DNA of 64,000 nucleotides from Lingula anatina. Lineage: Eukaryota > Animalia > Brachiopoda. The first letter of the stretch is position 1, and the number at the start of each line of letters is the position of its first letter. A model generated the notes under the pieces. It saw nothing but the letters and a program-made list of their open reading frames with translations. It was not told the origin of the DNA and ran no database searches. Below are positions 2,365-62,403 of this stretch, one piece after another. The translations under genes and the position numbers were made by a program. Where the stretch lies: the NCBI GenBank assembly GCA_051362555.1, contig CM120646.1, positions 7,316,001 to 7,380,000 of the forward strand. Direction: 5' to 3'.

Positions 2365-2408
<44 letters not shown>

Positions 2409-5648: not shown

Positions 5649-5736
5649 CTTGAGTTTCCCTCTATATCCGTACGTAGACAACGTTATTCTGCTTTTTGTG
5701 CTGATGACGTGTATAAAGCCTTGTCTCTCTTCGTTC

Positions 5737-5808
5737 TATTTATATATAGCGCCCCGTGGCTTATTTGCATGGCAGGCTAAGATCCGGGTCGGCTGCATCG
5801 TCACGTGA
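5737..5808 (-). promoter_or_regulatory. Proximal promoter of Kunitz gene A (TATA box, octamer-like ATTTGCAT, E-box TCACGTGA)
   Basis: TATATATAAATAG on the minus strand ~90 bp upstream of the ATG; ATTTGCAT at 5763-5770; TCACGTGA at 5801-5808. TATA and E-box are conserved in copy C (23651-23662, 23716-23723). Confidence 0.55.
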
Positions 5809-7369
5809 TCTTCTTTATTTCCCTGTTACAGAGTTAGGAGTGGTAAAGGTAGCGATATTTGAATTGTGATGACAATAACAGATAAAACCCGCTTCCGAGA
5901 AAAGTAGTGCATAAACACGCTTAAATTGAGGAAACATAAGATAGTCAGAAACGGAACCAGGAAGGACAGGTGTCTTGGTCTTTCACTAAGCTTCCGAGGT
6001 ACCCTTTTTTACCCCCACCCTCCTTAAAAACAGGGCAAAAATCAAAATAAAACAAAACCAAGCTACCACTTTGTTCTGCACGTTATGGTAAAATATCATT
6101 CGTTCATGCTTTTATATTAAACCTCATGAAATTGCATATCCCTACCTTCCTTGAGCCAAGTCCTGGAACTGCCAGCTTTATGCTGTGCCGTTTTATCCTC
6201 TTGCTGAATAATTAAGGCAAAGGCGAGTCTACTTGGATAGCAGCACTTCTGTACGTCAGCTTTTTATTTATATATATATTTAGTTAGTTAGTTAGTTAGT
6301 TAGCTAGCTAGCTAGCTAGTTATTGTTATCTGTAAACATTGTGAAAAGGAGATGTTTTCTAATATCTAGAAGTTTTCTATCAGGACACCGAGATCGAATC
6401 GAATCGAATCTTTTTTTTTTTTTTTTTTGCTCGATTGATATCTACCCGGTAAAGTTATAATTAACTCATATTACCTTTAAAGGTTAATATGGCCTTTTAC
6501 TGGTGCGAGCAATCCACCGGTTTTTATGGCTTTTTAGAAAGGCACCCTAATAACCAACTGTCAATTTGTGCTATAACTCATTCCATTTCTTTTAAACCAC
6601 ACACCAAAGCACACTCCTAGCACGAGATCTATTTCTGAATTTCGTTGGTTCGTGATATACAGCTCCAGAAAATCGATTTTTTCCTTGCTTCTAAATAAAA
6701 CGTCGTGACTGGTGACTGGGCGGTGTTACATGTACACTTAGGTTTGAATCCGCATTCTTTGTAACCGCTTGAGTGATAGAACGTCTGAGGTACATGTAGA
6801 CGGTACGATTATACACGGGGAGATTATATTGTGACTACATGAAATAACGAATACAAGGTGTATCACTGCAACATTAAAAGACAATATATCAGTTTCTTGT
6901 ACCATAACACAAGTATCTGGGTTTTGTGCTCTTTCATGTAGCGGCCTTTTCAATGCCAACGTATTTACAGAAGAGAGATATCGAGATACTTTTTCTTACA
7001 TTTAAAACTATAATTAATCTAATATCCAACTCATATTTCCTCGTGGGGTGCAACTCCTGAGATGCTTTGCTATCACAATAAAACATGTGGACGATTTATT
7101 TCGTCGCACCTTTAAACTTGTTTTGACTATAATATATACGTGACCACTAATACCACAAATTAAAAAAAAAAACGTGTTGGAGAGGCCATCAAGTGTTACT
7201 GTTAGCTAAATATTACGTGGCAGTGTGTATGACATAAACAAGTACAATGCAACAGTACACCACCAGAAAAGAAAATGCTACGCACTTGTATGCTATGTGT
7301 ATGCTACACACGAGCAAAATTAAATACACGTCGTTCCACTCACATAACCTTGTGCATAGCACATCTTAA

Positions 7370-7738
7370 AGGGATAATAACTCTTCGTATGAGATCTGTA
7401 TTTCGCGATAAAAACATTGTAAACAACTCATAGAAATAAAGTATATTCTGTTTTACCACGAAAACGGCAGTTATAGCTATTATTCTGATATCTGAGCTTG
7501 TCATCGGACCACCCGACCCCCACAGATGGCTATGCTCTGTTATAATCTCTTATGATTTGTGGTATAATCTCTTAAGAGATTATTACAAAAAAATCAATTT
7601 TTTTAGAAAAAAATCCCTAGGGACTAACTTTGAATGTAGAAATGGATTCATTAACCATTAGTAAGTACATGTATAAGAAAATTGTTGTTTACTCCAAAAT
7701 TTTTTTTTTTTTTGCCAAAACGAACAGTTATTATCCCT
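7370..7738. mobile_element. Non-autonomous TIR element with TTAA TSD (Kolobok-like AG..CT ends)
   Basis: TTAA|AGGGATAATAACT...AGTTATTATCCCT|TTAA. It is absent from the homologous site in unit C (~26775), and an inverted relative lies at ~15944-16316. Confidence 0.75.
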
Positions 7739-8318
7739 TTAATCAAATTGATATGTCACTTGATATATGTGTCACTCATTCAACATCATTTATTTATCTA
7801 TTTCAGAGTCATGTGAAAAAACCCCAGACACTTGACACCAGACAACCATACGACATTTAGAGAGTATACTACCTAGTACGTACTTCTTTTTGTCTGAAAT
7901 CAAAAATCTTAACTAAAAATTAGCAAACTGCCTCAATTTTTCCCATTTCATAATCCAAAGAAATTTCATATTTACTTCATTCACAAAATATACATTTTTC
8001 ACATGACACTGTGAGACATTGGAAAAGTGGAAAAGGTGTAAATACTATAGTAAATGCATGTAGGAGTTCTAAAGGCTGATAGTTTCTTACCTGTACATGA
8101 ACAATCAAGTTTTCTTTAATTTGCTTTAAAGCCATGCCTACACCATTAAATATTATCCTACAGAATTTATTTCCATCTGTAAAATGCGACATTTATGTTC
8201 TTGTATAAAACAAGCCATAGACCCCCTAGCTACTGATCTGAGCTGGGGCAGAAAAGTTCATTCTGAAATCCCAACTTCAGAATGAACTTCAGAAAAGTTC
8301 ATTCTGAAGTTGGGATTT

Positions 8319-8497
8319 CAGGCTCGTAGCTGGGGAGGGGGGGGGGGGTAGGATGGTTCGAAGGAACCCCCCCTTTTTGCCAGGAAAAGGTCCCCTCTGG
8401 TTAAAAAAATTCATCTAGAGACATGAAGGTTTCATGGTAAGAGGTCCACTCTTTCAGAAAAAGAACCACCCCTTTGAAATTGCTGGCTACAGGCCTG
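8319..8497. mobile_element. ~180-bp MITE with CAGGCCCGTAGCC-type TIRs and 5-bp TSD (GATTT)
   Basis: TIRs CAGGCTCGTAGC / GCTACAGGCCTG flanked by GATTT on both sides. Family members at 16909-17078, 25880-26058, 27281-28447 (split by a LINE), ~34011-34163, ~35635-35771 and ~54190-54268. Confidence 0.8.
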
Positions 8498-8823
8498 GAT
8501 TTGCTGTGCTTTTTGCATTCGATAACGATTACATGTGTTCAGGGGGTCCTAGGTAACATCTGAGACCAAATACTAAGGTATGCCTGAGAGCTCTTAGACC
8601 GCGACACCGCCATTGGTAAAAGAACAGACCGAGGTACAACCAAGAAACCCGAGTTTCTAGTATCAAAAAGTGGGGAAAGTCTTATATATATTGCAAATGG
8701 ACATTACATAGACTTCAAACAATTGCCAGGATATTGTAGCGAGCATATCAACAGTGGAGCCCTGTCTTCTGCCCTGTGAATACTGTGAGATTTTGTTTCA
8801 CTTAATGTGTCTCTTTATGCCGG

Positions 8824-9063
8824 TGTAACATGAAAATCTGACTCCCATGAAAATCTGACTCCCCCAGTCAAATAAAAATCAGACTCCCCTCTGACTCTCC
8901 ATTGTGCATACTACAAGATAAAAGTCATACACTCAAATAAAATAAGATTTATAAAGTTTTGTGGGGGGGGGGGGAGTAAAAATTTCGTGGGGGGAGTCAC
9001 ATTTTCATAATGAAAATCTGACTGGGGAGTCACATTTTGTCGGAATCAGATTTTCATGGTACA
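8824..9063. mobile_element. Non-autonomous Ginger1-like element (TGT..ACA TIRs, CCGG TSD)
   Basis: CCGG|TGTAACATGAAAATCTGA...TCAGATTTTCATGGTACA|CCGG. The empty site with a single CCGG is in unit C at 28821-28824. Confidence 0.75.
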
Positions 9064-9966
9064 CCGGAATTAAGTCTGGTTAAAAGCCTTATGTCATAAT
9101 GTGGTTAAAGAACAACTTGAGAACCTTATATGGTGAAGTATGGCTAAAATTTGCTTTTTGTTACTAAACAAAGAACAAAAGATATAACAAAACTCATTAG
9201 TATAAGTTCAAAAATCACATCAATCCACATGAGCTTTGTTAAAATTATACAAGTGGATGGTTAAAATGACATTAATTCACCTTTCAAAATTAATAAATGT
9301 GATAATTTTGGTAAGGTTGTTAGTTTAGTATGTTTCCTTGTATTCTTGTTAATCTATAAGTTAAATCAAAGGAATGGGTATTAAAAACACCACAATCTTG
9401 TAGTCACTTTGTTTTTATTGGCCATATAAGCTAGGGCATTCTACATATGAAATGAAATGAAAATTCGGAATGAGAGAGGAGAGTGCAAAGAATGACCGAT
9501 CAACCCGTTACTTTTGATATTCTGGAGACAAAATTACATAATTCACTATAAACTGTACAATGTCATACTGTGAATAACACGACGCCCATTGAATGTTATT
9601 ATATCTGTATTATTACTTATAAAAATTAAACATCTGCTGGTGCACAAACTACTGTTAAAGTCGGGGAACATCTCACATATTATTACGTTAATGTTCATAC
9701 ACGTAACTAAAAACAATGAATATACAAATAAATCCCAATACAGACTTCGAAATGTAGATATATCTGAAATATAAAGCTGAATAATCTTGAAACTACATCA
9801 TCGCAATTTTTTCTTTCAGATAGAAGTAAAACTTATTGAAAGTTTTTTTTTTTTTTTTTCTAAAGAACAATATCACTATTTTCAGGTCGGTCACACTTTT
9901 AGAACTCAATGTTCATTTAGACAGCATCAGTGAATCATAAGCTCGCAGTTCAGAGTGTATATGTCC

Positions 9967-12877
9967 TCACTGTTTGCATTCACGCCAACAGTCCTCCAAA
10001 GTTTTAAAGTTATTGACATTTCCTCCACATCCCGAGTAGATAAACGCATCACACTGCCTGGACTTGCTGTTGAAGTAGTACCGAACCGCATAATCTACAC
10101 ACCACCCTCGTTCTTTTGGATGCTCACAAAGTGCTAAAATTTTTAAATGGGTAACTAAAAGGGTGTTTAATAGCTATATAAAACAATGAAATAAAATCTG
10201 ACTTGGCAGTCGCATTTTTAATAAAAACCAATAATAATTTTGTCCGGAGTGCCATCTACTGGGGCTTCGCAAGTAAGCAGGGTATCTCTTATCCTTGTTC
10301 AATCTTTTTTGGCTATTTATCACATAAAAACTCTACCTAATTAGACTGTGACGTTCTGTTACATGCCGGAGCACATTATATGCAAGTACTAGTTAAAGAA
10401 TATATCACCATAATATCACGCACTGTGAACTTTAATTGTGATTGTGATAAAGTCTACATGTACAATGAATACAAAAGTAGTATGACCAGCACTTCTGACA
10501 CTCCCATAAAATAACTTTACTTTGTTGGCCCATGAAGCAGAAATAAGTTTTAAATTATGTCTGATAAGTTGTTCTGAATTTAAATAAATGACGGAAGATG
10601 TGCTTTCTCGAAAAAAAAGAAAGAATAACTTACGAATATGGCGTGGATGGCGCTGAGCACAATTGACTTTGCCCTGAACGCACGTTTCTCCTTTAGGACA
10701 CTTCATCGTCTAAAAGCAAATCATTAAACACCACTGAAAACCAGTTTTCTACCAAAGTATTCATAAACAGAAACGGAAATTAAGCAAACATTTTGACAAT
10801 TAGTTTATTCTGTACATTCGTATTTGTATGGATAGCGTCACCAACCGAACAGTCAAGCTGATTTAACTGATTTATAAACCAATATATTTATTTAAACAAT
10901 ACATATTTTAATATTATCAAAAATAAATTCATTTTGAGGAAAATATATAGATATTGAATCTTATAAAAATTTGCACAAGCAAACAAGCAGCTGATCTGAT
11001 AATTGAATGATTATTTGAAAAGAAGAATGCATAGGAGTTTATATTCTAGCATTTTTCATTGTCTCTAAACTAAAAATTACATATATTTCCTAAATGAGAA
11101 ATGTGCAGTTATAATTAAAGAAAACACAAATCTTTTCACCTGACATGTTGAAACACATCTTGGATAAGGAAAGGTGACACATTTCTGGCCAGCAAAGCAG
11201 GTTACAGCAGCCTGGGTATAGAAATACAGATGCTTATATGTTCGATGCACATTTTATAGCCAATACATACAAATGCCAGCATAATCAAGTTTTCTACTTA
11301 TTTCATGTATTTTATTTCGTATAAAAAACTCCAAGTCCGGTGTGACAGGAATGGTAGACGACTAAGAATCATAATTCGGTCTCCATTACTTTGTCCAGGT
11401 GACATTTATCTTATATGTAGCCCCAATACTACGGCTACATGTAACCATAATCATATGAGATCCTGGACTTCCATTCCTAGGACTACTACCATTCCTGTCA
11501 CCGATCTCTGCAACAATCTGGTTCTCATTTCGAAGACATTGGCGTGGTCTCAAGAATAGTGTGGTACACTTCCACAATAAAAAGAGTTGAGATTTGGCCT
11601 AGATTATACCAGATTATACCAGAGATAAAACTAATGATGTATTATAAACGATACCATCAACATTTAAGGTAATTATCCCAACAATGACTAAAAAAGCAAA
11701 TAATTCGGAAACTCATCAGGAACGTGTAACAGACTTTTTGGACAACAGCGTTTGTAGAAACAAAAAGCGACCAAGATATTGACAGCTGCTGCACTGAAAG
11801 ATAATGTGCACTAGACCATGTGGACAGACTGAACCGGTTCGCCTTTTGCCATAATTGCTCTATGTCAAGTTGACTTGGAAATCAAACCAACCACACCAAA
11901 TATTCATGTACCATACAGTATAAGGTCAAATGCTTCAGCTATGGTACTACACAGCCAAGCGTACGAATAGCTAATGGACACAAGAAGATTCACACAAACA
12001 AAAAAAAAAACCAAAACAAGCACTTGTTAATACTTACACAACCAGCAGGCAGTACCTGTAAAGAGAAACAAGAACAACATAACGATAACAATTGGCGATA
12101 AATTCAGCTGACGTGTTTCGAACTGTGTGTTGTAATCGACGTTCGGTTTTAAACCTTTTTTTACCCCACCGCCTTTTAGAACAATGCAAAAATCGAAATA
12201 TGAAAAACCCAAGCTACCTCTTTGCTCTGCATTTTATTGATTATTGATTGATTACTGATCCGGATCACCACCAAAAACTATTCATCTCTTCCTTGGCCCA
12301 CTTCTGACAGTTTCTGAAAACTTCATCAAAATCGGTTCACAACTTTATGAGTTATGTTGATGACAGACAGACAGAAAGACAAACAGAAACAAGGGTGAAA
12401 ACATAACCTCCTTGGCGGAGGTAAAAAAACTGCAGCAAATTCAGAATATTTCATCCCGTCTTTAATCCACACAGCCAGGGAGACTCATATCACACCCATT
12501 TTAAAGCAGTTGCATTGGATCCCTGTTAGAGCATGCATTTTATTAAATTCTTTTTAAACTTTTATGCATGCAATTTTCTACCAATACGCACACCCGTACC
12601 TACAAAAACTAGTTCATCATTATGCAACAAAATGTAGTTTAAGATTGCTTGACCAAATTGAGCTCATGCCATTTGATGCCAGAACTGGAAAACAATTAGA
12701 GACCTTTCATTTACCCAATCACTCTTTTAAGCAGCAATTACATCAAATCGTGAAGCTGCACAATATATCTCAACACTAAAATTAAAGTGTACAAGTGCAC
12801 GCGAGAGAGAGTCATACCTTTCCCTGCGTCGCGCAAATAATCAGCAAAACAAAACCAAGTGTTACGGTTGCTGTCAT
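9967..12877 (-). CDS. Secreted Cys-rich + Kunitz protein, copy B (~130 aa; exon 4 deleted)
   Basis: Exons 12818-12877 ([20 protein letters not shown]), 12038-12055 (VLPAGC), 11140-11211 ([24 protein letters not shown]), 10634-10709 (TMKCPKGETCVQGKVNCAQRHPRHI), 9967-10133 (PLCEHPKERGWCVDYAVRYYFNSKSRQCDAFIYSGCGGNVNNFKTLEDCWRECKQ*). The frame is intact. Candidate polyA signal AATAAA (minus) at 9414-9419. Confidence 0.8.
12232..12424 (-). mobile_element. Partial Helentron-associated (HINE/DINE-1-like) element
   Basis: Near-identical to 14335-14530, with the (GACA)n microsatellite and the ACCTCCTTGGCGGAGGT terminal palindrome. Confidence 0.7.
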
Positions 12878-13844
12878 CTTGAATTTCCCCTTTATAAGTG
12901 TACGCAGACAATATTCTTCTGCTTTATGTGCTGATAACACTTTTGGCTTTATTTATGTAAAACGCCCCATGGCTTATTCACATGACAGGCTAAGAACCGG
13001 ATCGGTTGCATCGTCAGGTGATCTTCTTTTTTTACTTGTTACAGAGCTAGAGTGCAATTCCTCTTTTGTTATCATAATAAAACGCGGGCGATTGATTTCG
13101 TCGCACCTTTAAACTTGTTTTGACTATTTACGTAATCAACTAATATCACAAAAAAACATGAAACGATATTTAAATTGTGCTGACAATGATAGATCAAACC
13201 TGTAAAACCTGTTCCCGAAAAAAGTATACTGCTTAAACAAGTTTGACTTGAGGAAGCATGCGACAAATACATAGTCAGAAGTAGAACCAGGGAGAGGCAG
13301 GTGTCTCGATTTTTCTCTAAGCCCCAAGATACCCTTTTATACCCCACTGCCTTTAAAAACAGTGCAAAAATCGAAATATGAAAAAACCAAGCTACCTCTT
13401 TGCTCTGCATTTTATAGTAAAATACCCTTCGTCCACTTTTTTTTATATTAAACAGTGTAAAATCGCATACCCCATTTTCCCTCAAGTCCTGAAGATTTCT
13501 AGGTATAAGGACACCGGGATCGAATCAAAACACCGGATAGATTTTCATTTTTATGGTCTTTCAATATTCATTTTTGCTCGATTGATATCTAAATTTATGA
13601 TAAACTTCTCTTTCCTTTAAAGGTCAATATGGTCTCTTACTGCTGCGAGCAATCCACCAATTTTATCGCGTTTTAGAAAGTCTCCATTATTGCTGAGTTT
13701 AAATTTCTCTTATAACCCGTTTTTTTTTAACCACACACCTAAACACACACCTATTACGAGATCTATTTTTGGATTTAGTTCGGTTCGTGTTATACAGCTT
13801 CGAAAACTCGATTAGTGTTTTTTCTTCTAAATGAAACGTCGCTA

Positions 13845-14770
13845 CTGGGCAGTGTCACATGTACACGAAGATTGATTTTGATCTTTCACTACTTGTTTTT
13901 GGGATGCCCCAAGGCAGTGTCCTTGGGCCATTTTTGTTTTGCATTTATACCCTGCCACTTGGTGCTGTCTTACGTCATCACAAACTTGGATACCCCATGT
14001 ACGCTGTTTATACTCGGATCTATAGGCCTACTTGCTGTGATATACAGTATCCTAAACCCTCTTTGGATAAATTAACCAACTGTGTGGCTGATGTTCGCGC
14101 CTGGCTCATCAACAACAAATTGAAACTAGAAAAGCATTCAGAAAGCGCAGACCTCCGCCAAGGTAGCAAAGTATCCATCCAATGCCGTTTCACCCCTATG
14201 ATTTTCGATATTTATGATTATTGATTATTGATTGATTATTGATCCAGATCACCACCAAAAACTAATCATCTGTTCCTTGGCCCACTTCGGACATTTCCTG
14301 AAAATTTCATCAAAATCAGTCCATAACTTTATTTTTTGATTATTGATTATTGATTGATTATTGATCCGGATCACGACCAAAAACTAATCATCTCTTCCTT
14401 GGCCCACTTCTGACAGTTTCTGAAAACTTCATCAAAATCGGTTCACAACTTTATGAGTTATGTTGATGACAGACAGACAGAAAGACAAACAGAAACAGGG
14501 GTGAAAACATAACCTCCTTGCCGGAGGTAACAATTAAACTGCAGCAAATTCAGAATATTTCATCCCGTCTTTAATCCGCACAGCCAGGGAGACTCATATC
14601 ACACCCATTTTAAAGCAGTTGCATTGGATCCCTGTTAGAGCATGCATTTTATTATTTTTTTAAAACTTTTATGCATGCAATGTTCTACCAATACGCACAC
14701 CCGTACCTACAAAAACTAGTTCATTATTATGCAACAAAATGTAGTTTAAGATCGCTTGACCAATTTGAGC
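13845..14770 (+). mobile_element. Decayed CR1/L2-like LINE reverse transcriptase fragment (duplicated with the Kunitz unit), interrupted by a HINE
   Basis: FGMPQGSVLGPFLFCIYTLPLG...MYA...WLINNKLKL, then HITPILKQLHW. Homologous to 24780-25630. Confidence 0.8.
14126..14530 (-). mobile_element. Non-autonomous Helentron/HINE-type rolling-circle element
   Basis: Sub-terminal inverted repeats ACCTCCGCCAAGG (14151-14163) and CCTTGCCGGAGGT (14516-14528), a short terminal hairpin with CTAG end, two ~122-bp internal core repeats (GATCCGGATCACCACCAAAA...) and a (GACA)n tract. Confidence 0.75.
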
Positions 14771-14873
14771 TCATGCCATTTGATGCCAGAACTGGAAAAC
14801 AATTAGAGACCTTTCATTTACCCAATCACTCTTTTAAGCAGCATTTATTTGTCGTATTGACATGGTGATATTA

Positions 14874-15136
14874 CAGTGGCTGATTTAGAGGGGGGTGGCA
14901 TGGGAGGGGTCCTGGCCCACATCCCTTCGATTTCTGGTCCCCTCTTGAAATTAGTATTTTGACTAGCTAAATCATAGTACTAAACCGTACCAAATGGCAC
15001 CGTTCGCCCTCTAAAGTGCTAAAAATTTTTTCGGGGTCCTTCAGCGGGCCCCGAACCCACGCCAAATGGGGAGGGGGGGGGGGGCTTTGCAACTGCAGAC
15101 CCCCCCCCCCTTCAAGTAGTCCGTGATCCGCCCCTA
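14874..15136. mobile_element. MITE with CAGTGGC(G)GAT/ATCCGCCCCT TIRs and 5-bp TSD (TATTA)
   Basis: TATTA flanks both ends (14869-14873 and 15137-15141). An inverted relative lies at ~55050-55269. Confidence 0.7.
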
Positions 15137-15189
15137 TATTATATGTGTCATTTCCAAACTAAACTGTTGACTCAAAGACTTTGTATTTT

Positions 15190-16628
15190 ATTTTCAGATC
15201 ATGCAGAAAAATATAAATAAATCTAAAAAAGGTAAAGTATAATGAAGAGTCAATAAAGCACGGCATACAACAATACAGATCCACCACTGATGGATATAGA
15301 AAAACTGCATGAAAATTTGACATTCCATGTTCAACATTACGAGATTATATTAAGAAAGTGCCTGAGTGGGAGTGCTTTTACTAAAGGAAATTATGAAAGT
15401 GAAGATGAATGTGTTTGCTTAGACCCCATTCCCAGAGATAAGATCGATCCAACTAGATCGACCTAACTCCCTGGGGGTTCACGCTAAATAGCTGTCAGCC
15501 GAGCGCGCACGGTAGTTAATTACCCCCTTACAGCTTTTAGTAGGCGGGACGGACATTTAAGCCGGATTATCTGACAGTAATCTAGTGAGACTCCCCACCG
15601 GGACAGATCGATCTAAAATCTATGGGAATGCGCCCTTAGTTTGCCTGGAGCCCTGGTCAAACAGTAAAACACATGAAAAGTGGATTGCATTTTGTGCATA
15701 TGATATGTGGGCCCACGAGGAGTGTACGGACTCTCTTGGCCAGCCTGACTTTACGTACGTTTGTCACAACAGTAACTCTGATTAATGTAGATGATTTGTT
15801 GTTGATAATTTAATAAACATTTTGATATTTTGGTTACAACTGCTGTGTTTTCATTGGTGCTGTCGTCTTTAACATAAGTTTTATTTTTGAAAAGTTACCC
15901 TAGGCAAACAATAGTTAGGAGTCGTTAAAGATTGACTGCTTAAAAGGATAACAACTGTTCATTTTGGTAAAAAAAAGGAATTTTCCTGGGGTAAACAGCA
16001 ATTTCCCATACTTACCGATGGTTAATGAATTCATTTCTACATTCAAAGTTAGTCCCTTTTTTATAATTTTTTTTTTTTTTTTGTAATAACATCTTAAGAC
16101 ATTACTATAGACTAAGATCTAATAAACAGTATATTAGATCTTAGCTATAGAGTATAGCCATCTATGGAGGTCACGTGGTTGAATGACAAGCACAGATTTC
16201 AGATTTACTGTCATAACTGTCATTTTTGTAGTGAAATAGATATATTATAGTTATTTGAGTTGTTTACAATGTATTAATTGTGAAATATAGATATCATACG
16301 AAGAGTTGTTTTCCTTTTTGCTGCTGTTACTCGGTCTTACTGATTAAAATGCACAAAATTGGACAAAAGCACATTTTTTTCTTGGATTCTAGTATGTGTG
16401 TGGACTTGCCCCTGGGTGGGGCAAGTTGGCACACTTGGACTAGACTTTTTTAAACTTAATTTACTCTCATATAATTTACAGTGGACGCCTGATACTTATC
16501 CAAAATAAAGGCATTTAAATAACCCTCCTGACAAATATCTAGGATCCTGACGATAATAGTATATATATATATATGTCTCTCATGCCAATTTTCATGAAAA
16601 TGGTGCTGACTAGCCCCACCCTCCCCTA
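15190..16628 (+). mobile_element. Internally deleted pogo/Tigger-like DNA transposon remnant (HTH-psq + C-terminal PHD finger)
   Basis: ...GYRKTA*KFDIPCSTLRDYIKK (psq-type HTH) is joined to C-x2-C...WI-x-C..WAHEEC...YVC (PHD). A TIR-like end GCCCCACCCTCCCCTA lies at ~16613-16628. Confidence 0.55.
15422..15635. mobile_element. PIF/Harbinger-like MITE (TTA TSD) inserted in the PHD-finger codons
   Basis: TTA|GACCCCATTCCCAGAGAT...ATCTATGGGAATGCGCCC|TTA. Removing it restores ECVCLVCLEPW. Confidence 0.7.
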
Positions 16629-17761
16629 TTATTATTTATTATGAGTGCTCCAGCACAACGTACAGTGGAAAAAGTGTAAATTTCAGTAAATGCATGTAGG
16701 AGTTCTCAATGCTGATAATTTCTCACATGTACTAGTAAGTTCTCTTCAATTTGCTTTAAACCTATACCTTAACCGTTAAATACTATCCTGCAGAGTTTAT
16801 TTTTCATCTGTAACATGCTACCTACATGTTCTCGTATAAAACATAAGCCATGGACCCCCAGTACTGATCTGAGCTAGGGCAGGAAAGTTCATTCTGATGT
16901 TTAGATTTCAGGCCCGTATCCGGGGGGGGGGGAGGGGGGGGGGGAAAGGAAAAGGTCCGAAAGACGGAAAAGGTCCCCTCTGGTTAAAATTTCATCTAGA
17001 GACATGAAAGTTTCATGGTAAGAGGTCCACTTTTTCAGAAAAAGTACCACCCTTTTGAAATTGCTGGCTACAGGCCTGGATTTGCTATGCTTTTTGCAGT
17101 CGATAACGATTAAAAGTGTTCAGGGGGTCCTATGTAGATAACATCTAAGACCAAATATTAAGTTATGCCTGAGAGCTCTGAGGCTGCGACACCGCCAGAG
17201 GTAAAAGAACTGACGGAGGTACTACCAAGAAAACCCATGTTAGAAAAAGATGGCCGATGAGCTGGAGACAGGGGTGTGCTAGCTCGCAAAAGTTACCGCC
17301 AGTCAAGGGATGTATGGGGTGACAGAACGATCGGGGTGAGTTACGATGACATGAATAGACCGTGCACCGATATGCGTGCCTGATTTTGAAAACTGTGTAA
17401 CAAAGGTGCTTTTTTTACGTCTTTCGTATATATAACATTCCAAGTACAGATTGAACTAAGCATGAGTAACTGTATTGTTCATGAACAAAGGTAAATGGAA
17501 GTGAAATATTGCGTAACACTATAAGTGCCCTGATCAGTGAACACCAGTGAATTTCTGCCTCATTATCCATCCTACCTGCACTATTAATGTGTACAGTGTA
17601 TGGTTCATCGCCCCATGATGAATGGAACTAAAGAAACAAATGAGCGTAATGACTCGAAAACATCTCAGTCAACGAAAACACTTCACTCGGAACTCTCAAA
17701 CTCCAGTGACGATGAATCTCAATTCATTATGCAAGATGTAGTGCCAGGGGCAGGTAGAACC

Positions 17762-17835
17762 GGCCGGGTAGCTCAGTAGGTAAGAGCACTCGCCCTGTAA
17801 GCGAGGGGTCCCGGGTTCGATTCCTGGCCTGTTCG
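17762..17835 (+). ncRNA. tRNA-like sequence (anticodon TGT, Thr-like) within the 5' LTR
   Basis: Cloverleaf with D-arm GCTC/GAGC, anticodon arm CTCGC-CCTGTAA-GCGAG and T-arm CCGGG-TTCGATT-CCTGG. A box TAGCTCAGTAGG, B box GGTTCGATTCC, and a T5 run just downstream. The acceptor stem is imperfect. Confidence 0.75.
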
Positions 17836-17952
17836 GTGATTTTTCTGCACTCACCCCAAATCGCTACAATGGTGGCAGCGGTGTTGCGAGATAGGGCTCG
17901 CGTCTTTCGGCATTTGGGGGGGAGGAGTGTAGTGCCAGGGGCAGGTAGAACC

Positions 17953-18026
17953 GGCCGGGTAGCTCAGTAGGTAAGAGCACTCGCCCTGTAAGCGAGGGGT
18001 CCCGGGTTCGATTCCTGGTCTGGCTG
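17953..18026 (+). ncRNA. tRNA-like sequence (anticodon TGT) within the 3' LTR
   Basis: Same cloverleaf as 17762-17835; the acceptor stem GGCCGGG/TCTGGCT pairs fully with G-U wobbles. Confidence 0.75.
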
Positions 18027-18910
18027 GTGATTTTTCTGCACTCACCCCAAATCGCTACAAAGAAATGCTAGAAATTAAAACTGAATTAAAACAAATAATA
18101 AAAGATGAGGTGGGCGAAATAAAAGCTATGGTAGACGTAATGGTTAAAGATTTGAAAGAAGCCATGGAAAAGCGGTTTTTAGAAATGGAAATGAAATTCG
18201 ACGTGAGATTCGGAAGACTGAAAGAGGGATATGATCACCTGTCAACTGAAAACAAATTATTGAAAGAGCAGATTATGGACAATAAAAGAGAAATTACAAG
18301 GTTAGCAAAAATAGCAGAGGAAGCTGGCAACATGTCCAGAGAAGCTCAAATCAATGCTAACTATAATGAGCAATACTCCCGGAAAAACAACATCAAGATC
18401 TACGAAGTGAAAGAGGAGAAAAATGAAGACATGGTCGGCATGGTGTCCAAACTGGTACAATAGGAAACTGGTGTACGGGTGACCAGTGAAGAGATCGTTG
18501 CCGTGCACAGGATACCTGGAAAGCGAGGACAGGAAAGACCAATATTACTGAAAGTTAAGAACACTGATGTGAAAGCACGGATTATGAAAAAGCGTGCAGT
18601 ACTCAGGAAATAGGGAAAGAATATGAAACTTTCAGACGATGTAACCAAACGTAACATTGAGCTTTTACACAGACTAAATGAGAGTCAGCTAACATATAAT
18701 CTCGTTAATGCTCATACATGTAACGAAAAATAACAATTATACAAATAAATCCCAATACAGACTTCGAAATGCATAAAAGGGTAACATTTAGATATATCTG
18801 AAATAAAAAACTGAACAACCTTTAAACTACGTCATCGCATTTTTCTATCGGATAGACGTAAAACTATTTAAGTTCAGAGTGTATAGTCGGTCTGCAGTGT
18901 CAATTTGTCC

Positions 18911-21900
18911 TTACACGAGGCATTTAGCTTCACAGTCTTCCAAAGTTCTAAAAAATGGAATATTTCCTTGACATCCCTTATAGATAAACAGCTCACACTG
19001 CCTTGTCGCGACGTGGAAGAAGTACATAAGGAGGTGTAATCCACAGTCCAGGGCTATAGGTTGAATCAGGCAGATTGCTAAAAAAAATTAAATGGGAAAT
19101 TGAAATGGTGATTTATAGCTATGCAAAACAATAGAAAAAAGTCTGAATTGCCAGTCGCATTTTTTATGAATACCGATAACAATTTTGTCCGGAGCGCCAA
19201 TTACCGAATACCGATAACAATTTTGTCCGGAGCGCCATCTACTTACATAATTCACTATAACCTATACAATGTCATTCGTGAATAATACAACGCCCTTGGA
19301 CGTTATTATAAGTTAATATATCAAAACTTCAAAGAATTAAGCATCTGCTGGTGCACGAACTACTGTTAAGGTCGGGGAACACCCGACATTACGCAATTAC
19401 GTTAATGTTCATACACGTAACTAAAAACAATAATTACACAAATGCATTACAGGGTAACAATCAGATATATCTGAAATATAAAGCTGAACAATCTTAAAAC
19501 TATGTCATCGTAAATCGTAATAAACTGTTGTTTCCGCAATTATTTTGATATGGCATACCCATGTAATGAAGGGATGATTGTTAACTTTTTTCTTGTTATT
19601 ATTATTATTATCATTATTATTAATTGTGGTACACAAATGTCTAAAACGTCTTTATTTAAATGTACTTAGGATGGACGAGAACCGAGTACCAAAGGTAGAT
19701 TTGAGATGGACACCACCTGGAAAAAAGAAAGAGAGGAAGGCCCAAGACCACCTGGCGCCGAACAGTGATGGCAGAGCTGAGGGAGGGGGACCTTATATGG
19801 GGACAGGCCCAGCACGTATCCAGAGACAGGGCCAAAGTATTGGGGCTTCGCAAGCAGATTGTCTCTCATCCTTGTTCGACCTAGTTTGGCAATTTGGACA
19901 TGAAAACTTAACCTAATGAGACTGTGCCGTTCTGTTATATACAGAAACACATTATATGCACGTACTTGTTAAAGAATATACCACCATAATATCACGCACT
20001 ATGAAATTTAATTGTGATTGTGATAAAGTCTGCATGTACAATGAAACAAAAGCAGTATGACCAGCACTTCTGTTACTCCCATAAAATAACTGTCGCCCCA
20101 TGAAGCAGAAACAATTTTCAAATTGTCTGATTTTTTTTTTCGAATTTAATATAATGAAGTGATGGAAGATGTGGTGTATTAAGAAAATGGAGACAATTAC
20201 TTACGATCAATGCGTTGATCGGGCTGTGGACATGGCTCCTTTTCACAAATGACTTTGTCCTGAACGTACGTTTCTCCTTTAGGACAGTCCATCGTCTAAA
20301 AGTAAAAAATGAAACACCACTGAAAACCAGTTTTCTTCCAAGGTTTTCATAAACAGAAACGAAAATTTAGCAAACATTTTGACGATCAGTTTATTCCGTA
20401 CATTCGTATAAGTAACGCCACCTACCGAACAGTCGGCCTTCTCAACTGCAACGCAGCGTGCACCGAGGGCTGTCTCAACGCATTTAGAGCCGACAGGACA
20501 TGTTACAACCTGCAGTCAGTTTAAAGATTGAACTGATTTATAAACCAATATATTTATTTAAACAGTTCATATTTTAATATTATAAAAATTAATTAATTTT
20601 GAGGAAAACAGATAGATATTGAATCTTACGAAACATTTCAGAAGTAAACAAGCAGCTGTTCTGATAATTTAATGTTTATTTGAAAAGAAGAATGCATAAG
20701 AGTTTATATTCTAGCATTTTTCGTTGTCTCTAAAGTAAAAGTCCATATATTTCCTAAATGAGAAATTTGTAGTTATTATTAAAGAAAACGCAAATCTTTT
20801 CACCTGACATGTTAAAACACATCTTGGAAATGGATAGGGGACGCATCTCTGGCCAGGAGGGCAGGGTACACCAAACTGGGTATAGGAATACAGATGCTTA
20901 TTATATGTTCGGTGCACATTTTGTAGCCAATGAATACAAATGCCAGCATAATTAATTAAGTTTTCTACTTGTTTTATGTATCTTTATTTCGTATAACAAA
21001 ATCCCAGACCGGTGTGACAGGAATGGTAGTCGGCTAGGAACCATAATTAGGTCCCCGTCACTTTGTGCAGGTGACATTCGTCTTATATATATATATATAG
21101 CCCCAATACTAGGACCAAATGTAACCATAAACTGGGCTAATCATATGAGATCCTGGACTTCCATTCCTAGGACTACTACCATTCCTGTCACCGGTTTAAG
21201 CAAGAATCTGGTTCTCGTTTCGATGACATTGGCGTGGTCTCAAGAATAGTGTGGTACACTTCCACAATAAAAAGAGTTCAGATTTGGCCTAGATTATACC
21301 AGAGGTAAAACTAAGGAATAATTATAAAAGATACCATCAACATTTAAGGTAATTATCCCAACAATGACGAAAAAAGCAAATAATTCGGAAACTCATCAAG
21401 AAGTGTAACAGACTTTTTGGACAAGAGTGTTTGTAGAAACAAAAAGCGACCAAGATATTGACAGCTACTGCACTGAGATAAAATGTGCCACTAGACCAAA
21501 TAAATACACTGAAACGGATGGCATTTTAACATTCTTGCTCTATGTCAAGTTGACTTGGAAATCAAACCAACCACACCAAATATACATGTAGTCTACCATT
21601 TACGGTCAAATGCTTCAGCTAAGGCACTACACAGCCAAGCGTACGAATAGCTCATGGACACAAAAATTCACACAAACAAAAAATATCGAACAAGCACTTG
21701 TTTATACTTACACAACTACGAGGCAGTACCTGTATAGAAAAAACAAGAACAACGTAAGTGTGTGTTATAACGATAACAATTGACAATAGGAGCTCACTCG
21801 ATAAATTCAGCTGACGTGTTTCGATCTTGATGTTGTTATCGACATTCGGTGTTTAAGACACAAAATTAATTTTCCTGGAAAATACATATTATGGTATACT

Positions 21901-22345
21901 GGTAAAATTCATTTACTTGAGAATGGCTGGTTGTTTCTTATCGATGCTCAATTTTGGGTTTGATTGTCTCCTATATTCTCGGAGATGTCATCACTTCTCA
22001 ATTAAACTTCAAGCAATACATGTACACTTAAATTTGTGTTGAGTTCACTCCCGTAACAATGGAGATAAAAACTGGTGCATTTCACTTGTGACGACAACAA
22101 CTAGAGATTCGGTAACTGGTTTATGGATCGAAATTTTCTCAACGATTTTATTTTGGATAGGATATACTTTGGTGAGACAAAGGAAATTTTGCTCTAATTA
22201 ACACACTAGTTTTCATTTTGCTTAATGACCAGCAAGTTTGTTGTTAGGAAACCAATTTGCTTTTTGTATTACTTACAAATACTTTTTAACATCACTCTCT
22301 CAAGCCACCAAACCATCTACCCCTCCAAAGGCACAATTTTAAAGC

Positions 22346-22383
<38 letters not shown>

Positions 22384-23580
22384 GGCAATATTAAGAGATA
22401 TGTGTTCTTTATGATACCACCTTTTTTAAAATGATTCTTTTTGATGATGTGGCCTTCTTGATTTAAAAATCAAGAAGGCCACATCAAAAAGAATCCTATA
22501 ATTTATAAAAAGATATGTTGCGCATCGTGTGTCTATCTATAATCAAAGTTGAAAACCTGACAAGTCTAGGTTTTGGAATTTAGTATGGATTATGATGGTT
22601 GTTTATATAACTGTCACGCTGCGAGACATGTCAGTTTCTTCTGAGTTTCTATCACTGACAATAGCTTAGAATTTTTTACCTTAGCTTTGGGATAAACGAA
22701 CCATCGTACAGACACAGTTAAAGAAAAAACAGTTAAGATACCACCTTTGAAATCAAGTAGGCCACATCAAAAACCATATTATGTATAAAAATGTCTGTTG
22801 CAAATAGTGTGTCTATCTATAATCAAAGTGCCGAGTGCACGTGCCGAATGAACGCAATATGTGGCAGATGTATCTCAGATAATTTCTCTGTACAGTCTGG
22901 CATTGATTAATACGCCTGTTATTACTTTTCTCCTAAATTTTCTTCGTCCAATGACAACCATTTTTAAAGTATGGGTTCGGCATTAGGAATTTATTAAACG
23001 TTATTTATTGCGTCTTTAATTCATGAGGTTGTCGTATTTTGAAATATCTTAAGACCTACCTGTATTACCGATCATGTGTTAAAGTGATTAATTGTCACCA
23101 TAAGATATTATAAAAACTAAAAATTATATCTTGTTTATTAATAATATTGTTTTATTAGAATAAGCTTTAAATTGTTTTTTTTAATTCTGTTATTTTTTTT
23201 TCCTTTTTGGCTGGCCTAAACATAACGTATCCTGGGACAGCCACCTTTCGTCTGATTGTGTTATCATTTCGTTAAAGGAGGAGAAAAACGCATTGTGCTA
23301 CTGCAACCTCCTATGAGATTTAGATAAAATGTCCATTTGCGTCTTTGTTTTGCTAAAATATTTTTTTCTTTTGTCTAAGTCATGAACTGGAAAACAAGTT
23401 AAGACCTTTCATTTACCCTTTTGCTCTTTTACGCGGCAATTACATCAAAATCGTGAAGCTGCACAACATATCTCAACATTAAAATTAAAGTGTACAAGCG
23501 CGCGAGAGAGAAAGACTTACCTTTCCATGGGCCGTGCAAATAATCAGCAAAACAAAACCAAGTGTTGCAGTTGGTGCCAT
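18911..23580 (-). CDS. Secreted Cys-rich + Kunitz protein, copy C (~163 aa)
   Basis: Exons 23521-23580 (MAPTATLGFVLLIICTAHGK), 21712-21729 (VLPRSC), 20804-20875 (FGVPCPPGQRCVPYPFPRCVLTCQ), 20426-20509 (VVTCPVGSKCVETALGARCVAVEKADCS), 20205-20295 (TMDCPKGETYVQDKVICEKEPCPQPDQRID), 18911-19077 (PICLIQPIALDCGLHLLMYFFHVATRQCELFIYKGCQGNIPFFRTLEDCEAKCLV*). All splice sites and exon lengths match copy A. Confidence 0.85.
19655..19840 (+). mobile_element. RTE-clade LINE 3' fragment
   Basis: LRMDENRVPKVDLRWTPPGKKK...PKTTWRRTVMAELREGDLIWGQAQ (with a frameshift) matches the RTE ORF C-terminus pattern. Confidence 0.7.
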
Positions 23581-24327
23581 CTTGAGTTTCCTTTTATATC
23601 AGTAGGAAGACTATATTCGTCTGCTTTTTGTGCTGATAACGCTCTTCGCTCTATTTATATAAAACGCCCCATGGCTTATTCACATGACAGGCTAAGAACC
23701 GGATCGGTTGCATCGTCACGTGATCTTCTTTTTTTACCTGTTACAGAGCTAGGAGTGCAATTCCTCTATTGTTGTCATAATAAAACATGTGGGCGATTAA
23801 TTTCGTCGCACCTTTTAAAAAACTTGTTTTGACTATTTACAGTATGTACGTGGCCAATAATATCACAAAAAGACATGAACAATAATTGAATTGTGATGAC
23901 AATAATAGATCATACCTGCAAAACCTGCTACCGAAAAAAAGTACTGCATAAACAAGTTTGACTTGAGGAAACATGCGACAAATACATAGTCAGAAGTAGA
24001 ACCAGGGAGAGGCAGGTGTCTCGATTTCTCACTTAAGCTCCGAGGTACCCTTTTTCACCCCACCGCCTTTACAAACAGTGCAAAAATTGAAATTTGAAAA
24101 ACCAAGCTACCTCTTTGCTTTGCATTTTAAAGTAAAATACTATTCGTCCACTTCTTCATATTAAACAGTGTAAAATCGCATACCCCATCTTCCATTGAGT
24201 CAAGTCCTGGATCTGCCAGTTGTATGCAGGGCTGCATTATCCTATCGTACTGATTAATGGAGGCAAAGGCGATCTTCACTTGGATCCTCAACTCTTTATT
24301 TGTTCGTTTATTAACATATTAACATAT

Positions 24328-24370
<43 letters not shown>

Positions 24371-24779
24371 TTGTCAACTGTAAACACTGAACTAAGCAGT
24401 TGTTTTCTAATATCTAGAAGATTACTAGAAAACCTCTAGACATTAGGACGAAGGGGTCGAATCAGAACACCGGATAGATTTTCATGTTTTTTTTTTTCAT
24501 TTTTGCTCGATTGATATCTAAATTTATGATAAACTTCTTTTGTCTTAAAGGTTAATAGGGTCTCTTACTGGTACGGGTAATCCATCAATTTTTATCTCGT
24601 TTTAGACAGTCTCCATTATTGCTGATTATTAATTTCTCTTATAACCCGTTCCATTTCTTTTAAACCACACACCAAAACACACACCTAGCACGAGATCTAT
24701 TTTTGAATTTAGTTCGGTTTTTGTTATAATACAGCTCCCAAAACTTGATTTGTGTTTTTTTCTTCTAAATGAAACGTCG

Positions 24780-25630
24780 CGACTGGGCGGTGTCATATGT
24801 ACACGTAGGTTGATCTTTGATCTTTCAAAACTTGTTTTTGGGGTGCACCCAGGCAGTGTCCTTGGGCCAGTTTTGTTTTGCATTTATACCCTGCCACTTG
24901 GTGCAGTCTTACGTCATTACAAACTTGGATACCCTATGTACGCTGATGAAGCTTAGATCTATACTTGCTGTGACATACAATATCCTAAACCGTCTAGGGA
25001 TAAAATTATCAACTGTGTGACTGATATTCGCGCCTGGCTCATCAGCAACAAATTGAAAATTAATGACGGAAAGACTGAGATTTTATTAACCACGCAACCT
25101 CCTAGCAATCAATTTGCACAGAATCTATAACTTGAATTACCAGTAGACACCAGTGGTGTGGACACACTAACGCACGTGAAAAACCTGGGTGTCTACTTTG
25201 ATTCCACTATATGCATTGATAGACAAATATCCAATATCACTCAATCATGTATTTTTAACATAAGAAATATAGGTGCTATTAGAAACTACTTGGATCAATC
25301 TTCTGCAGCAACAGTTATTCATGCGATGATAACCTCTCGTTTAGACTACTGCAACTCTTTATACTATGGCTGTACCGAAGATCGAATAAAAATCTGCAGC
25401 GAATTCAAAATATTTCAGCCCTTCTTTTAACCCACACAGCCAGGGAGGCTCATATCACACCCATTTTAAAGCAGCTGCATTGGTTTCCTGTTAGAGCATG
25501 CATTTTATTGAAAATTATAACTTTTATGGATGCAATTTATTTACCAATACGCACCCCCATACCTACAAAAACTAGTTCAGTATGCACCAAAATGTAGTTT
25601 AAGATCATTTGACCAGTTTTTGCTCATGCT
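24780..25630 (+). mobile_element. Decayed CR1/L2-like LINE RT fragment
   Basis: GVHPGSVLGPVLFCIYTLPLG..MYADE, VKNLGVYFDS, SRLDYCNSLYYG and HITPILKQLHW, with stops and frameshifts. Confidence 0.85.
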
Positions 25631-25685
25631 CTTTGGCCCACTTCTGACAGTTCCTGAAAATTTTATTTGACTTACACTTTCACTA

Positions 25686-26222
25686 ATTGCAGATAATAAT
25701 AAATTAAAACGGAGTAAAAGGATAGGGAGATATTGAGTGCAAGTTAAATTTCTTTAAGAGTCAACAAGTGTAGAAATTGTTCTCATAGTAGAAAAAGATG
25801 GAACATGTCAAAGTCACATATAGTTTGATTTGATTGGTTAATTTCTCAATAGATTAAGGTCTAGTTGCAGATAATAATTCAGGCCCGTAGCCAGCAATTT
25901 CCGAGGGGGGGGGGTCTTTTTCTGAAAAAGTGGACCTTTTACCAAAAAAAACCTCAAGTACTTAGATCAAATTTTACCCAGAGTGGACCTTTTCCCAGCA
26001 AAAGGGTGGTTCTTTCGAACCCTCGACCCCCCCCCCCACCCCACCGCTTACGGGCCTGTAATTAAAACGGAGTAAAAGGATAAGAAGATATTGAGTGCAA
26101 GTTAAATTTCTTTAAGAGTCAACAAGTGTAGAAATTGTTCTCGTAGTAGAAAAAGATGGAACATGTCAAAGTCACATATAGTTTGATTTGATTGGTTAAT
26201 TTCTCAATAGATTAAGGTCCAA
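25686..26222. repeat. ~178-bp tandem duplication, second copy carrying a MITE (25880-26058, TSD TAATT)
   Basis: TTGCAGATAATAAT...AAAACGGAGTAAAAGGATA...TAGATTAAGGTC is present twice. Confidence 0.8.
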
Positions 26223-27411
26223 GAATGAGTGATTCAAATAATATTTTAGTTATCTTTAATTGAAAACAAGTCTCTTCGAAATTACCTAATAAGGAAATGT
26301 TAAATGGTGGTTTGCACCATGAGAACTTGTAATCACACAAGGACAATGGATTGAAAGCAAGTAAACGCATGATCAGTACGGAAAAATAGAGTTTAAATAT
26401 CTGTGAAGTAGTGTGAAAATTTAGTCAGTGAATAAACGTTTGAAAGCTCCAGAAGCGTTGTTATTCTTCACTATACCAAGATGGACAAATAATTTCGTCG
26501 CACCTTAAAATTTGTTTTGACTATTTGCAATATGCACGTGGCCAATAATACCACAAATTTAAAAAACGTGTAGGAAAGGACATCATGTACCATTGTTCGC
26601 TGATCTTAATGTTACTCACGCGTCAGTGTGTAAGAGATAAACAAGTACAATGCAGTATATATAGGAAACCAACTGAGAAAATTCGTGTACTGATATATGC
26701 TACGCACGAGACATTTGTTTATTCAAAATTAAATACGCGCCGTTCCACTTACATAACCTTGTGCATAGCACATCTTTATCAAATTGATCTGTCACTTGAT
26801 AAATGTGTCATTCATTCATTGTCACTTATTCATTTATTTCATTGTCATGTGAAAAAAAAAGCACCAGAAGCCCCTCGGCCTTGCAAGGTACAATGTACTC
26901 GGAAAGTAGACAACCTACCGGGGAAGGACTTGTTTTTGTCTTAAAAATCAAAAATCTTAACTTCGTTCATTCTTAGACACAAAATACACATTTTTCATAT
27001 GACACTAAGATACATCAATTTTTACTGTTCTTTATTACATGAATGATTGCTCCAACACAACGTGAAGGGAAAAAGTGTAAATACCAGTAAATGCATGTAG
27101 GATTTCCCACTGCTGATAATTTCTCACATGTACTGGTAAGTTCACTTTAATTTGCCATGCCTACACCGTTAAATGTTATCCTGCTGAGTATATTTCCATC
27201 CAAAATGCGATCTACATGGGCTCGTATAAAATATAAGCCATAAAATAAACCACCTACTGATCTGGGCTAAGTTGGGATTTCAGGCCTGTAGCCGCAAGGG
27301 GGGGGGGGGGGGGGGGGGGGGGGGTCGGGAATTCGAAAGAACCGCCCTTTTTGCCAGAAAAAAGTCCCTTCTGGTTAAGATTTTATCTAGGGACATGAAG
27401 TTTTTTATGGT

Positions 27412-28396
27412 AAATAATAATAATAATAATGTGTATTTGTTTGCAACTTAAAAAGTTGAATTTTACAATAAAAGCAAATACACATGAGATGCACAGTCTT
27501 AAAATATACTTGTAAGTGTTAAAATGATTCGATATACATTAAAAGTTCATAAAAACCTCAGTTCTTAAAATTTGATAAAGCCCATGGGATAAAAGTTTTT
27601 AACGATCGTACAGTCCTCAATTTTGGCACAGTGTACTTATAAACCCGGCGCAAAGTATAGGAACTTCCATTTATCTCTGGGAGCAAATGATGGATTTTGT
27701 GTCCTTCAGAACACATGTTATGCAATAATGTTTTAGATAGTTCATCTCTTCTACAAGCAAGAGTGATAAGTTTACATGTTTCAAGTGCCCCATTGTAGGG
27801 CAGCTGTGGGAATATAATCTTACATGCTCTAATCTGGATGGATTCAATTTTATCAACTTGTTGTTGTGTGAGACCTGGGTGCCACACCTGACATGCATAT
27901 TCTAATGTAGGTCTGATTACTGATGAGTAAAAGCTTACAAGTTCATTGGTTGGAATACCCGCTCTTTTCAGAAGCTTAAAATTGTGTAGCCTTTAACTTG
28001 CTTTTTTACAAATATCACAGACGTGATCTTCCCAGCTCAAATCACTACTGATCCTAACCCCTAAGAAGACAGCAGACCCCACTCTCTCAATTCTTTTGAT
28101 TATCTACCAGTAAGGGTGTAGTTTTGTGTCCTTTTTTGGAGAAATCAAATATGATCTCTTTGGTCTTGGTAGTATTTATTGTTAGTTTATTAGCATGGGA
28201 CCAGAGAGTGAGTTCTGTTGTTGCATCAGGGAGATTGTCCTGCAGTTTGGTATTCCCGTAGCTTAGAATTGTGTTGTCATCTACATATTTGAATGTGTCA
28301 CACATTTGATGCTCAGATCGTTAATCATAATGACAAATTAAATAAAACTGCACCAAGTTTTGTGCCTTGTGGTACACCAGCATTAATTCGTTGCCA
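27412..28396 (-). mobile_element. 5'-truncated CR1/L2-group LINE (RT 3' part) with (ATT)n tail, inserted in a MITE
   Basis: Minus-strand AGVPQGTKLG, FKYVDDNT, KTKEIIFDF and IESIQIRACKII...FIPWAL; (TAA)n tail at 27411-27430. The flanks rejoin as ATGGTAA|AGGTCCAC of the MITE. Confidence 0.85.
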
Positions 28397-29019
28397 GGTC
28401 CACTTAAAAAAAAAAATGTTTTTTGAAATTGCTGGCTACAGACCTAGATTTGCTGTGCTTTTTGCATCTCGGGATATGATAACGATTACAAGTGTTCAGT
28501 GGGTCCTAGGTAACATGTAAGTCCAAATACTAAGGTATGTCTGAGAGTTTGAGGCCGCGCCATCGCCATGCCATGTAGGCGATCTTAATTCAACAAAGGC
28601 AAAAGACATGCAAGAATGATTGAGGTACAATCCAAGAAATCCCTTAGTTTCTGATATCAAAAAGTGGAGACTTGGCTATTACTATTGAACATTAAATATG
28701 CTTCAAAAATTCTCAACAAATTGTTGCGAACACATCAACAGTACAGTCTTGTCGGCTGCCCTTTAAATACGGTGAGGTGTTTTGTCTCACTGCCTGATCG
28801 GCTAGTTATTTTTGTTTATGCCGGAATTGAGTCTTGTTAAAACCTAATGTCGTAATACTGTCTAAGCACAACTTGAGAGCATGATATTGTGAAATAAGGC
28901 AAATATTTGCTTTTTTAAAATAATTAAAACACAAAAGTTTAAAAATTCACTATTTGTGTAACAATCACTTCAATCCACATGAGCTTCATTTGTTAAATGT
29001 TGACGTAAACCATCAGAAA

Positions 29020-59497: not shown

Positions 59498-59544
<47 letters not shown>

Positions 59545-62346: not shown

Positions 62347-62403
<57 letters not shown>

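Follow-up and report, generated by a model that had tools for sequence, protein, structure and literature searches.

A 323-bp non-coding element with two long terminal repeats (LTRs), each carrying a tRNA-like part, lies within an older reading frame in the 64,000-nucleotide window (the whole stretch of Lingula anatina DNA analysed here). At this size the element falls under the 1000-bp limit for TRIMs. The features of the locus, all on the forward strand, are as follows:

17588-18463, +: host frame hit by the insertion; older, decayed, multi-copy and probably LINE ORF1-like (reading frames, ESM Atlas)
17733-17736, +: left target-site duplication (TSD), AAGA (sequence; empty-site joint)
17737-17868, +: 5' LTR, 132 bp, TGTAG..CTACA (repeat comparison; termini of other copies fall exactly at 17737)
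17762-17835, +: tRNA-like part of the 5' LTR, anticodon TGT (ARAGORN; Rfam RF00005, 55.7 bits; pair list)
about 17769-17780, +: A box of the 5' LTR tRNA-like part (box strings)
about 17814-17824, +: B box of the 5' LTR tRNA-like part (box strings)
17840-17844, +: run of five T (T5) after the first tRNA-like part, a likely Pol III stop signal
17845-17861, +: LTR tail, U5-like, predicted by folding to pair with 17912-17919 and 17925-17932
17869-17927, +: internal part, 59 bp (sequence)
17870-17883, +: primer-binding site (PBS), 14 bases, tRNA-Leu-AAG type (by-eye comparison with Fig. S2 of PMC10886601; equal to the family consensus)
17886-17901, +: small internal hairpin GCGAG/CTCGC (predicted in folds)
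17916-17927, +: polypurine tract (PPT), 12 nt, abutting the 3' LTR (sequence)
17928-18059, +: 3' LTR, 132 bp (sequence; termini of other copies fall exactly at 18059)
17953-18026, +: tRNA-like part of the 3' LTR (ARAGORN; Rfam RF00005, 58.5 bits)
18031-18035, +: T5 run in the 3' LTR (sequence)
18060-18063, +: right TSD, AAGA (sequence; empty-site joint)

The two LTRs are identical at 128 of 132 positions and form the sole direct-repeat family within 17000-19000, and the G+C content of the element is 59%, against about 37% for the window. The internal part begins with one A, followed by 14 bases that are complementary, by eye, to tRNA-Leu-AAG at its 3' end; the tRNA used in this comparison is the honey-bee one printed in Fig. 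S2 of PMC10886601, which may differ from the host tRNA. Runs of four or more T occur in the element only at 17840-17844 and 18031-18035, each four bases past its cloverleaf, and runs of four or more A occur nowhere in it; it has no poly-A tail. The chance of a 4-base match between the flanks is about 0.005 at window composition. By BLAST, the element occurs just once in the window. The coordinates and anatomy in the original prediction (AAGA on both sides, 132-bp LTRs, PBS, hairpin, PPT and a 59-bp internal part) were thus confirmed on the sequence, as was the assignment of the PBS to tRNA-Leu.

The element can be placed in a known family. Table S1 of PMC10886601 (Kojima 2024) lists as row 187 Helenus-1_LAn from Lingula anatina, with an LTR of 132 bp, an internal part of 59 bp, a full length of 323 bp and a TSD of 4 bp. 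Compared by eye with the consensus sequences in Data S1 of that paper, the internal part matches at 59 of 59 positions and each LTR at 130 of 132; the lengths are identical and the differences are point differences only, at positions 92 and 96 of the 5' LTR and at positions 97 and 98 of the 3' LTR. Kojima counts as full-length those copies that have over 90% identity across more than 90% of the consensus (PMC10886601), and the element, by these by-eye counts and equal lengths, lies above both values. It also has all the Helenus traits, namely A and B boxes in each LTR, a PBS after the 5' LTR and a PPT before the 3' LTR, and the 4-bp TSD of animal Helenus, with AAGA on both sides and a single copy in the empty site described below. 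Because the four dimensions are the same and the sequence is near-identical, the element, judged by its sequence, is a near-consensus copy of the published, named family Helenus-1_LAn and is already known at the family level; this match by itself would make Lingula the most likely source of the window. The original prediction had called it a tRNA-bearing TRIM of the Helenus class, which stands, and had proposed a comparison with published Helenus entries, which gave the match above; its view that this is probably a new family does not survive that match. Our literature search, which had subscription journals and Repbase outside its scope, found nothing on Lingula Helenus or TRIMp3 beyond PMC10886601.

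The insertion can also be seen through its absence. Four DNA runs (X1, X4, X9 and X10, the first three from three studies) were compared over 17400-18500, and in three of the four (X1, X4 and X9) a contig joins 17732 directly to 18060, skipping 327 bases, which is the length of the element plus one AAGA; four letters at the joint fit either side. Since this empty site carries a single AAGA, the 4-bp TSD that had been proposed from the two flanks is directly proven. In X1, one contig of 1521 bases spans both flanks with five other letters and two small insertions, and fits an empty allele of this very locus. The flanks are present in more than one version in X4 and X9 and, because the host frame is multi-copy, the empty forms in these two runs may be paralogues rather than alleles. 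The fourth run, X10, which has a different organism label, matched the element over a single piece of 160 bases, and the insertion site is outside its coverage. The insertion is probably polymorphic.

Other copies with the same ends are directly visible in these data. Among the loose ends listed, DNA contigs run into other flanks at 17737 in X1, at 17736 and 18059 in X4, and at 17736, 17928 and 18061 in X9, and RNA reads of X12 do so at 17737 (3 reads) and 18059 (4 reads). Loose ends at the element ends are as expected of a dispersed family with fixed termini. The summed contig depth, which is not a copy number, is about 1,350-6,080 on the element against about 100-370 on the flank in X9, and 48 against 7.6 in X1. 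Further loose ends within 17974-18051 (X4, X9 and X18) read, by eye, like sister families: some are Helenus-3_LAn-like, and a further variant is possibly among them.

Each half of the element, with a tRNA head and a short tail, has the look of a SINE, and a tandem pair of tRNA-derived SINEs, or a tRNA gene that was duplicated locally, might resemble an LTR element. Such an origin is extremely improbable, however, and is already refuted by the family match together with the empty site: the TG..CA ends, the PBS and the purine tract all sit at the positions they take in LTR elements, the 323 bases and one AAGA are missing as a single block from the empty site, the element has neither a poly-A tail nor a run of four or more A, and the family is published as a TRIM with a 4-bp TSD (PMC10886601). 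An ordinary SINE2 would be a single unit with a poly-A or simple-repeat tail and a TSD of variable length; here the LTRs are paired, runs of four or more A are absent and the insertion is a block with a 4-bp TSD.

The sequence that received the insertion is itself repetitive. The host frame remains in register across the empty site: to the left it is open for 49 codons, and to the right it runs to a stop at 18461. A match of register alone has a one-in-three chance. In the ESM Atlas its product reaches 0.90 against a cluster of LINE-1 ORF1 proteins, 65% of whose members carry Transposase_22, with three unnamed clusters ranking ahead at 0.91-0.93, and it has no Pfam hit at the curated cut-off; the frame is probably LINE ORF1-like. 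X4, X9 and X16 contain other versions of it with many differences, some of them close to the stop at 18461, and it is therefore multi-copy. Its decayed sequence continues past the stop to about 18611. Elsewhere in the window, three or more diverged multi-kb blocks (about 1000-8700, 9000-16600 and 16600-28800) are 67-87% identical, which suggests that they arose by old duplication, tandem or segmental, or are stacked repeats; the paralogy found among the three blocks by BLAST within the window does not cover the insertion site. A tandem repeat with a period of about 2850 bases occupies 58170-64000 (58170-61129 and 61021-64000 are 97.6% identical) and contains internal subrepeats of 77-91% identity. 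A 129-aa open stretch at 13835-14224 (+) holds a candidate reverse-transcriptase-like motif of the non-LTR type, seen by eye in its translation.

The tRNA-like parts of the element are convincing enough to mislead gene finders. ARAGORN, run over the whole window, calls exactly two tRNA genes, one per LTR and both Thr(TGT), as the original prediction had foreseen, and the Rfam RF00005 scores of 55.7 bits (5' LTR) and 58.5 bits (3' LTR) are well clear of the gathering score of 29; no other Rfam family was found in 17500-18300 up to E=1. The full cloverleaf that had been described in each LTR is complete but imperfect. A working tRNA normally has U at position 33. Both copies have C at this position, and the acceptor stem contains two to three G.U pairs and, in the 5' copy, one C.U mismatch, whereas the 3' copy forms all 21 pairs. 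The U33 and fully paired acceptor stem of a canonical tRNA-Thr are accordingly not found together in either copy.

The LTRs might nevertheless carry working tRNA-Thr(TGT) genes that are spread by the element. The ARAGORN and Rfam calls above threshold, the 21 of 21 pairs in the 3' copy and a T5 run at the usual terminator distance would all fit such genes, and PMC10886601 leaves this possibility open for a few bivalve and fungal Helenus families. On the other side are C33, the C.U mismatch of the 5' copy and the G.U acceptor pairs, and the fact that the two LTRs differ precisely within the acceptor stem, on its 3' strand. The folding z-scores of the two parts (-0.05 and -0.16) also speak against such genes, though real tRNAs often score weakly as well. 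Finally, Helenus-1_LAn does not appear in Fig. S1 of PMC10886601 among the families capable of encoding a tRNA. We regard working tRNA-Thr genes as very unlikely. Because of C33 in both copies and the C.U mismatch in the 5' copy, and because of the absence of the family from that list in Fig. S1, the tRNA-like part is probably a non-working tRNA, and its likely role is that of a promoter. By eye, the tRNA-like part at 17762-17835 resembles that of the bivalve family Helenus-4_PiIm in Fig. S1, with the same anticodon loop and D-loop length, hinting that brachiopod and bivalve Helenus share ancestry rather than having arisen by separate births.

If the tRNA-like part acts as a Pol III promoter, transcription would start near 17762 and would often stop at the first T5 (17840), giving a tRNA-like by-product of about 83 nt. 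Some transcripts would read through to the second T5 (18031) and would form a template of about 274 nt with a repeat of about 83 nt at both ends, which would suffice for the first strand jump; a leaky terminator of this kind is the simplest model. The LTR would then be laid out as U3 at positions 1-25, R at about 26-108 and U5 at about 109-132. Since the first T5 precedes the PBS, a Pol III transcript must pass it to reach the PBS. Where a folded tRNA lies directly upstream, a T5 run usually does terminate transcription, and such read-through may for this reason be rare.

Published evidence bears on both steps. In PMC10886601 the tRNA-like part of Helenus is taken to be a Pol III promoter, one that has not been validated experimentally, and the A and B boxes are conserved from one Helenus family to another. 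Read-through of the first T5 is not discussed in the main text of that paper, in which 'terminat' is used twice, on Cassandra. In a yeast in vitro study (bioRxiv 10.1101/2021.08.27.457903), T5 was less efficient than T6 and read-through of the primary terminator was frequent, and a hairpin close upstream strengthened a T4 terminator; by analogy, this evidence cuts both ways for a leaky T5. For Cassandra arrays, read-through of the intervening LTRs is presumed (PMC7215508).

RNA reads also cover the sequence of the element. Four long-RNA runs under the same species label were used, with 6-25% of each run read; two are poly-A/oligo-dT libraries and two are of unspecified selection, and they are unsuited to detecting Pol III starts. 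Together they gave 94 reads at the locus (37, 12, 37 and 8 per run), and among these 94 reads, from libraries unsuited to Pol III RNAs, there is no pile-up of starts or ends on the element. Between 35% and 100% of the reads per run continue into unlike sequence. The depth sits on the element and is zero over 17400-17732 and 18066-18324; a few reads cover 18325-18500, and those of X16 carry several other letters. Long RNAs from other loci therefore contain the family, and the read pattern is as expected of copies inside longer host RNAs; no read in these libraries points to expression of this particular copy or to a Pol III start.

This pattern invites a different account of the template, in which the same element is copied in the Gypsy manner from RNA made by Pol II, starting either in the first 25 bases of the LTR or by read-through from the host, and in which the tRNA-like part and its T5 would mostly yield short, dead-end RNAs. 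The extension of most RNA reads into other sequence, in poly-A/oligo-dT and unspecified libraries, would fit a Pol II template, as would the position of the T5 upstream of the PBS and the fact that PMC10886601 offers no experimental proof of Pol III activity. However, poly-A/oligo-dT libraries are not expected to catch Pol III RNAs in the first place, the U3 would be just 25 bases long, RNAs read through from the host would lack a defined terminal repeat, and Helenus families retain their A and B boxes (PMC10886601). We consider a Pol II template possible but unlikely, and transcription by Pol III remains the preferred reading.

Following transcription by Pol III, host tRNA-Leu would prime at the PBS and the new strand would jump between the two copies of R; priming of the second strand at the purine tract would then restore both LTRs, and the integrase of a Gypsy element would recognise the TG..CA ends, generating the 4-bp TSD. 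For animal Helenus in general, Gypsy helpers are deduced in PMC10886601 from the PBS and the 4-bp TSD, with a host tRNA priming at the PBS, and the same Leu-AAG type of PBS occurs in Gypsy-57_CaAu and Gypsy-130_CGi (Fig. S2). By this analogy, copying and insertion by Gypsy-type helper enzymes are likely, in agreement with the helper originally proposed. Among the three open reading frames of at least 150 aa listed for the window, none is gag- or pol-like by eye. Taken together, we hold with high confidence that the locus carries a copy of the published family Helenus-1_LAn, with a 4-base TSD and a site that is empty elsewhere, likely transcribed by Pol III and likely mobilised by a Gypsy helper.

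The differences between the two LTRs may record how this copy was made. All four fall within seven bases, at LTR positions 92-98 (17828-17834 and 18019-18025), where the acceptor stem has its 3' strand; if differences were spread uniformly, they would cluster like this in about 2 of 10,000 cases, a value computed after the clustering had been seen. A single clean retrotransposition would not give LTRs that differ at four sites. The version of positions 97-98 found in the 3' LTR also occurs in other copies (one X1 contig, and 12 of 22 RNA reads at 18024), and the T at position 96 of the 5' LTR is absent from the X9 contigs that cover it and occurs in 0 of 19 RNA reads, counts that are biased by the placement of reads fitting both LTRs according to best fit. 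The differences likely stem from two mixed templates, through template switching or gene conversion, with later mutation. In Onsen, members of the family are known to recombine in pairs (PMC5668417).

A second structural lead comes from folding. In the prediction, the LTR tail at 17845-17861 pairs with the purine tract and with the second LTR at its start (z -2.39; 2 of 200 shuffles), so that the stem would enclose the PBS and the internal part, with pair probabilities of 0.89-0.94 in the outer helix and 0.47-0.58 in the inner helix. In segment-wise shuffles the energy of this stem is matched in 52-56 of 2000 cases, a count that becomes 365-422 of 2000 once the LTR's first five bases are omitted, and the opposite strand folds equally well (z -3.50). 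A similar pairing can be drawn by eye in all four families viewed (Helenus-2_LAn, Helenus-3_LAn, Helenus-2_TeGr and Helenus-1_LiLo, of about 25 in that part of Data S1). The predicted stem is weakly above chance and is a lead only, because a pyrimidine-rich tail readily pairs with a purine tract. A kissing loop between the anticodon loop and the loop of the internal hairpin was also considered and rejected: among random 6-mers, 8% do equally well, each LTR has two other sites that pair better, and the pairing is missing in Helenus-2_LAn.

These observations can be combined in a speculative model, to which we give a modest chance at best. The leaky T5 would serve both as a gate and as the end of the template, and R would be the cloverleaf itself. 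The stem formed by the LTR tail, the purine tract and the LTR start would bring the two cloverleaves next to each other, ready for the strand jump, and would shield the PPT; a switch of template from one co-packaged RNA to another, within the 3' strand of the cloverleaf, would explain the clustering of the LTR differences. Neither the T5 after each tRNA part, nor the stem between tail and PPT, nor the clustering of the LTR differences, nor the idea of template switching is found in the main text of PMC10886601, the whole of which was covered.

The element shares its general design with several other groups. Cassandra in plants, Ajax in nemerteans and the TRIMp3 group as a whole are, like it, non-coding LTR elements with an internal promoter of the Pol III type in each LTR. 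The LTRs of Cassandra and Ajax carry sequence derived from 5S rRNA in place of the tRNA-derived sequence seen here, Ajax has TSDs of 5 bp rather than 4 bp, and Pol III transcripts have been shown, among TRIMp3, for Cassandra only (PMC10886601). A predicted fold that brings the PBS near the PPT has been reported for Cassandra (PMC7215508). Within Helenus, the Lingula families Helenus-2_LAn and Helenus-3_LAn share the Leu PBS by eye and differ in size (314 and 322 bp) and in LTR and internal sequences, according to Data S1. These two families and bivalve and nemertean ones such as Helenus-4_PiIm, Helenus-2_TeGr and Helenus-1_LiLo have, by eye, the same order of a tRNA-like LTR, then a T run, PBS and PPT, with TG..CA ends, and Helenus-4_PiIm has the same anticodon loop by eye; the bivalve and nemertean families likewise differ in LTR and internal sequences and lengths. 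The bivalve Helenus families in Fig. S2 of PMC10886601 use Lys, His, Ile, Pro, Glu or Ser primers, in contrast to the Leu primer of this element. SINE2 elements have in common with it the tRNA head with A and B boxes, and tRNA-derived SINEs are the proposed source of the insert in Helenus LTRs (PMC10886601); unlike them, the element has no LINE-like tail or poly-A, and has a fixed 4-bp TSD and an LTR pair with PBS and PPT.

The element is a clean example of false tRNA calls, as it accounts for both of the two tRNA calls in the window. Helenus elements range in size from 311 bp upwards (PMC10886601) and, at 323 bp, this copy is among the smallest, which would make it a convenient construct for testing Pol III transcription and the passage of the T run in the first LTR. 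For Helenus-1_LAn, a family otherwise known only from an assembly consensus, the empty site is a new addition.
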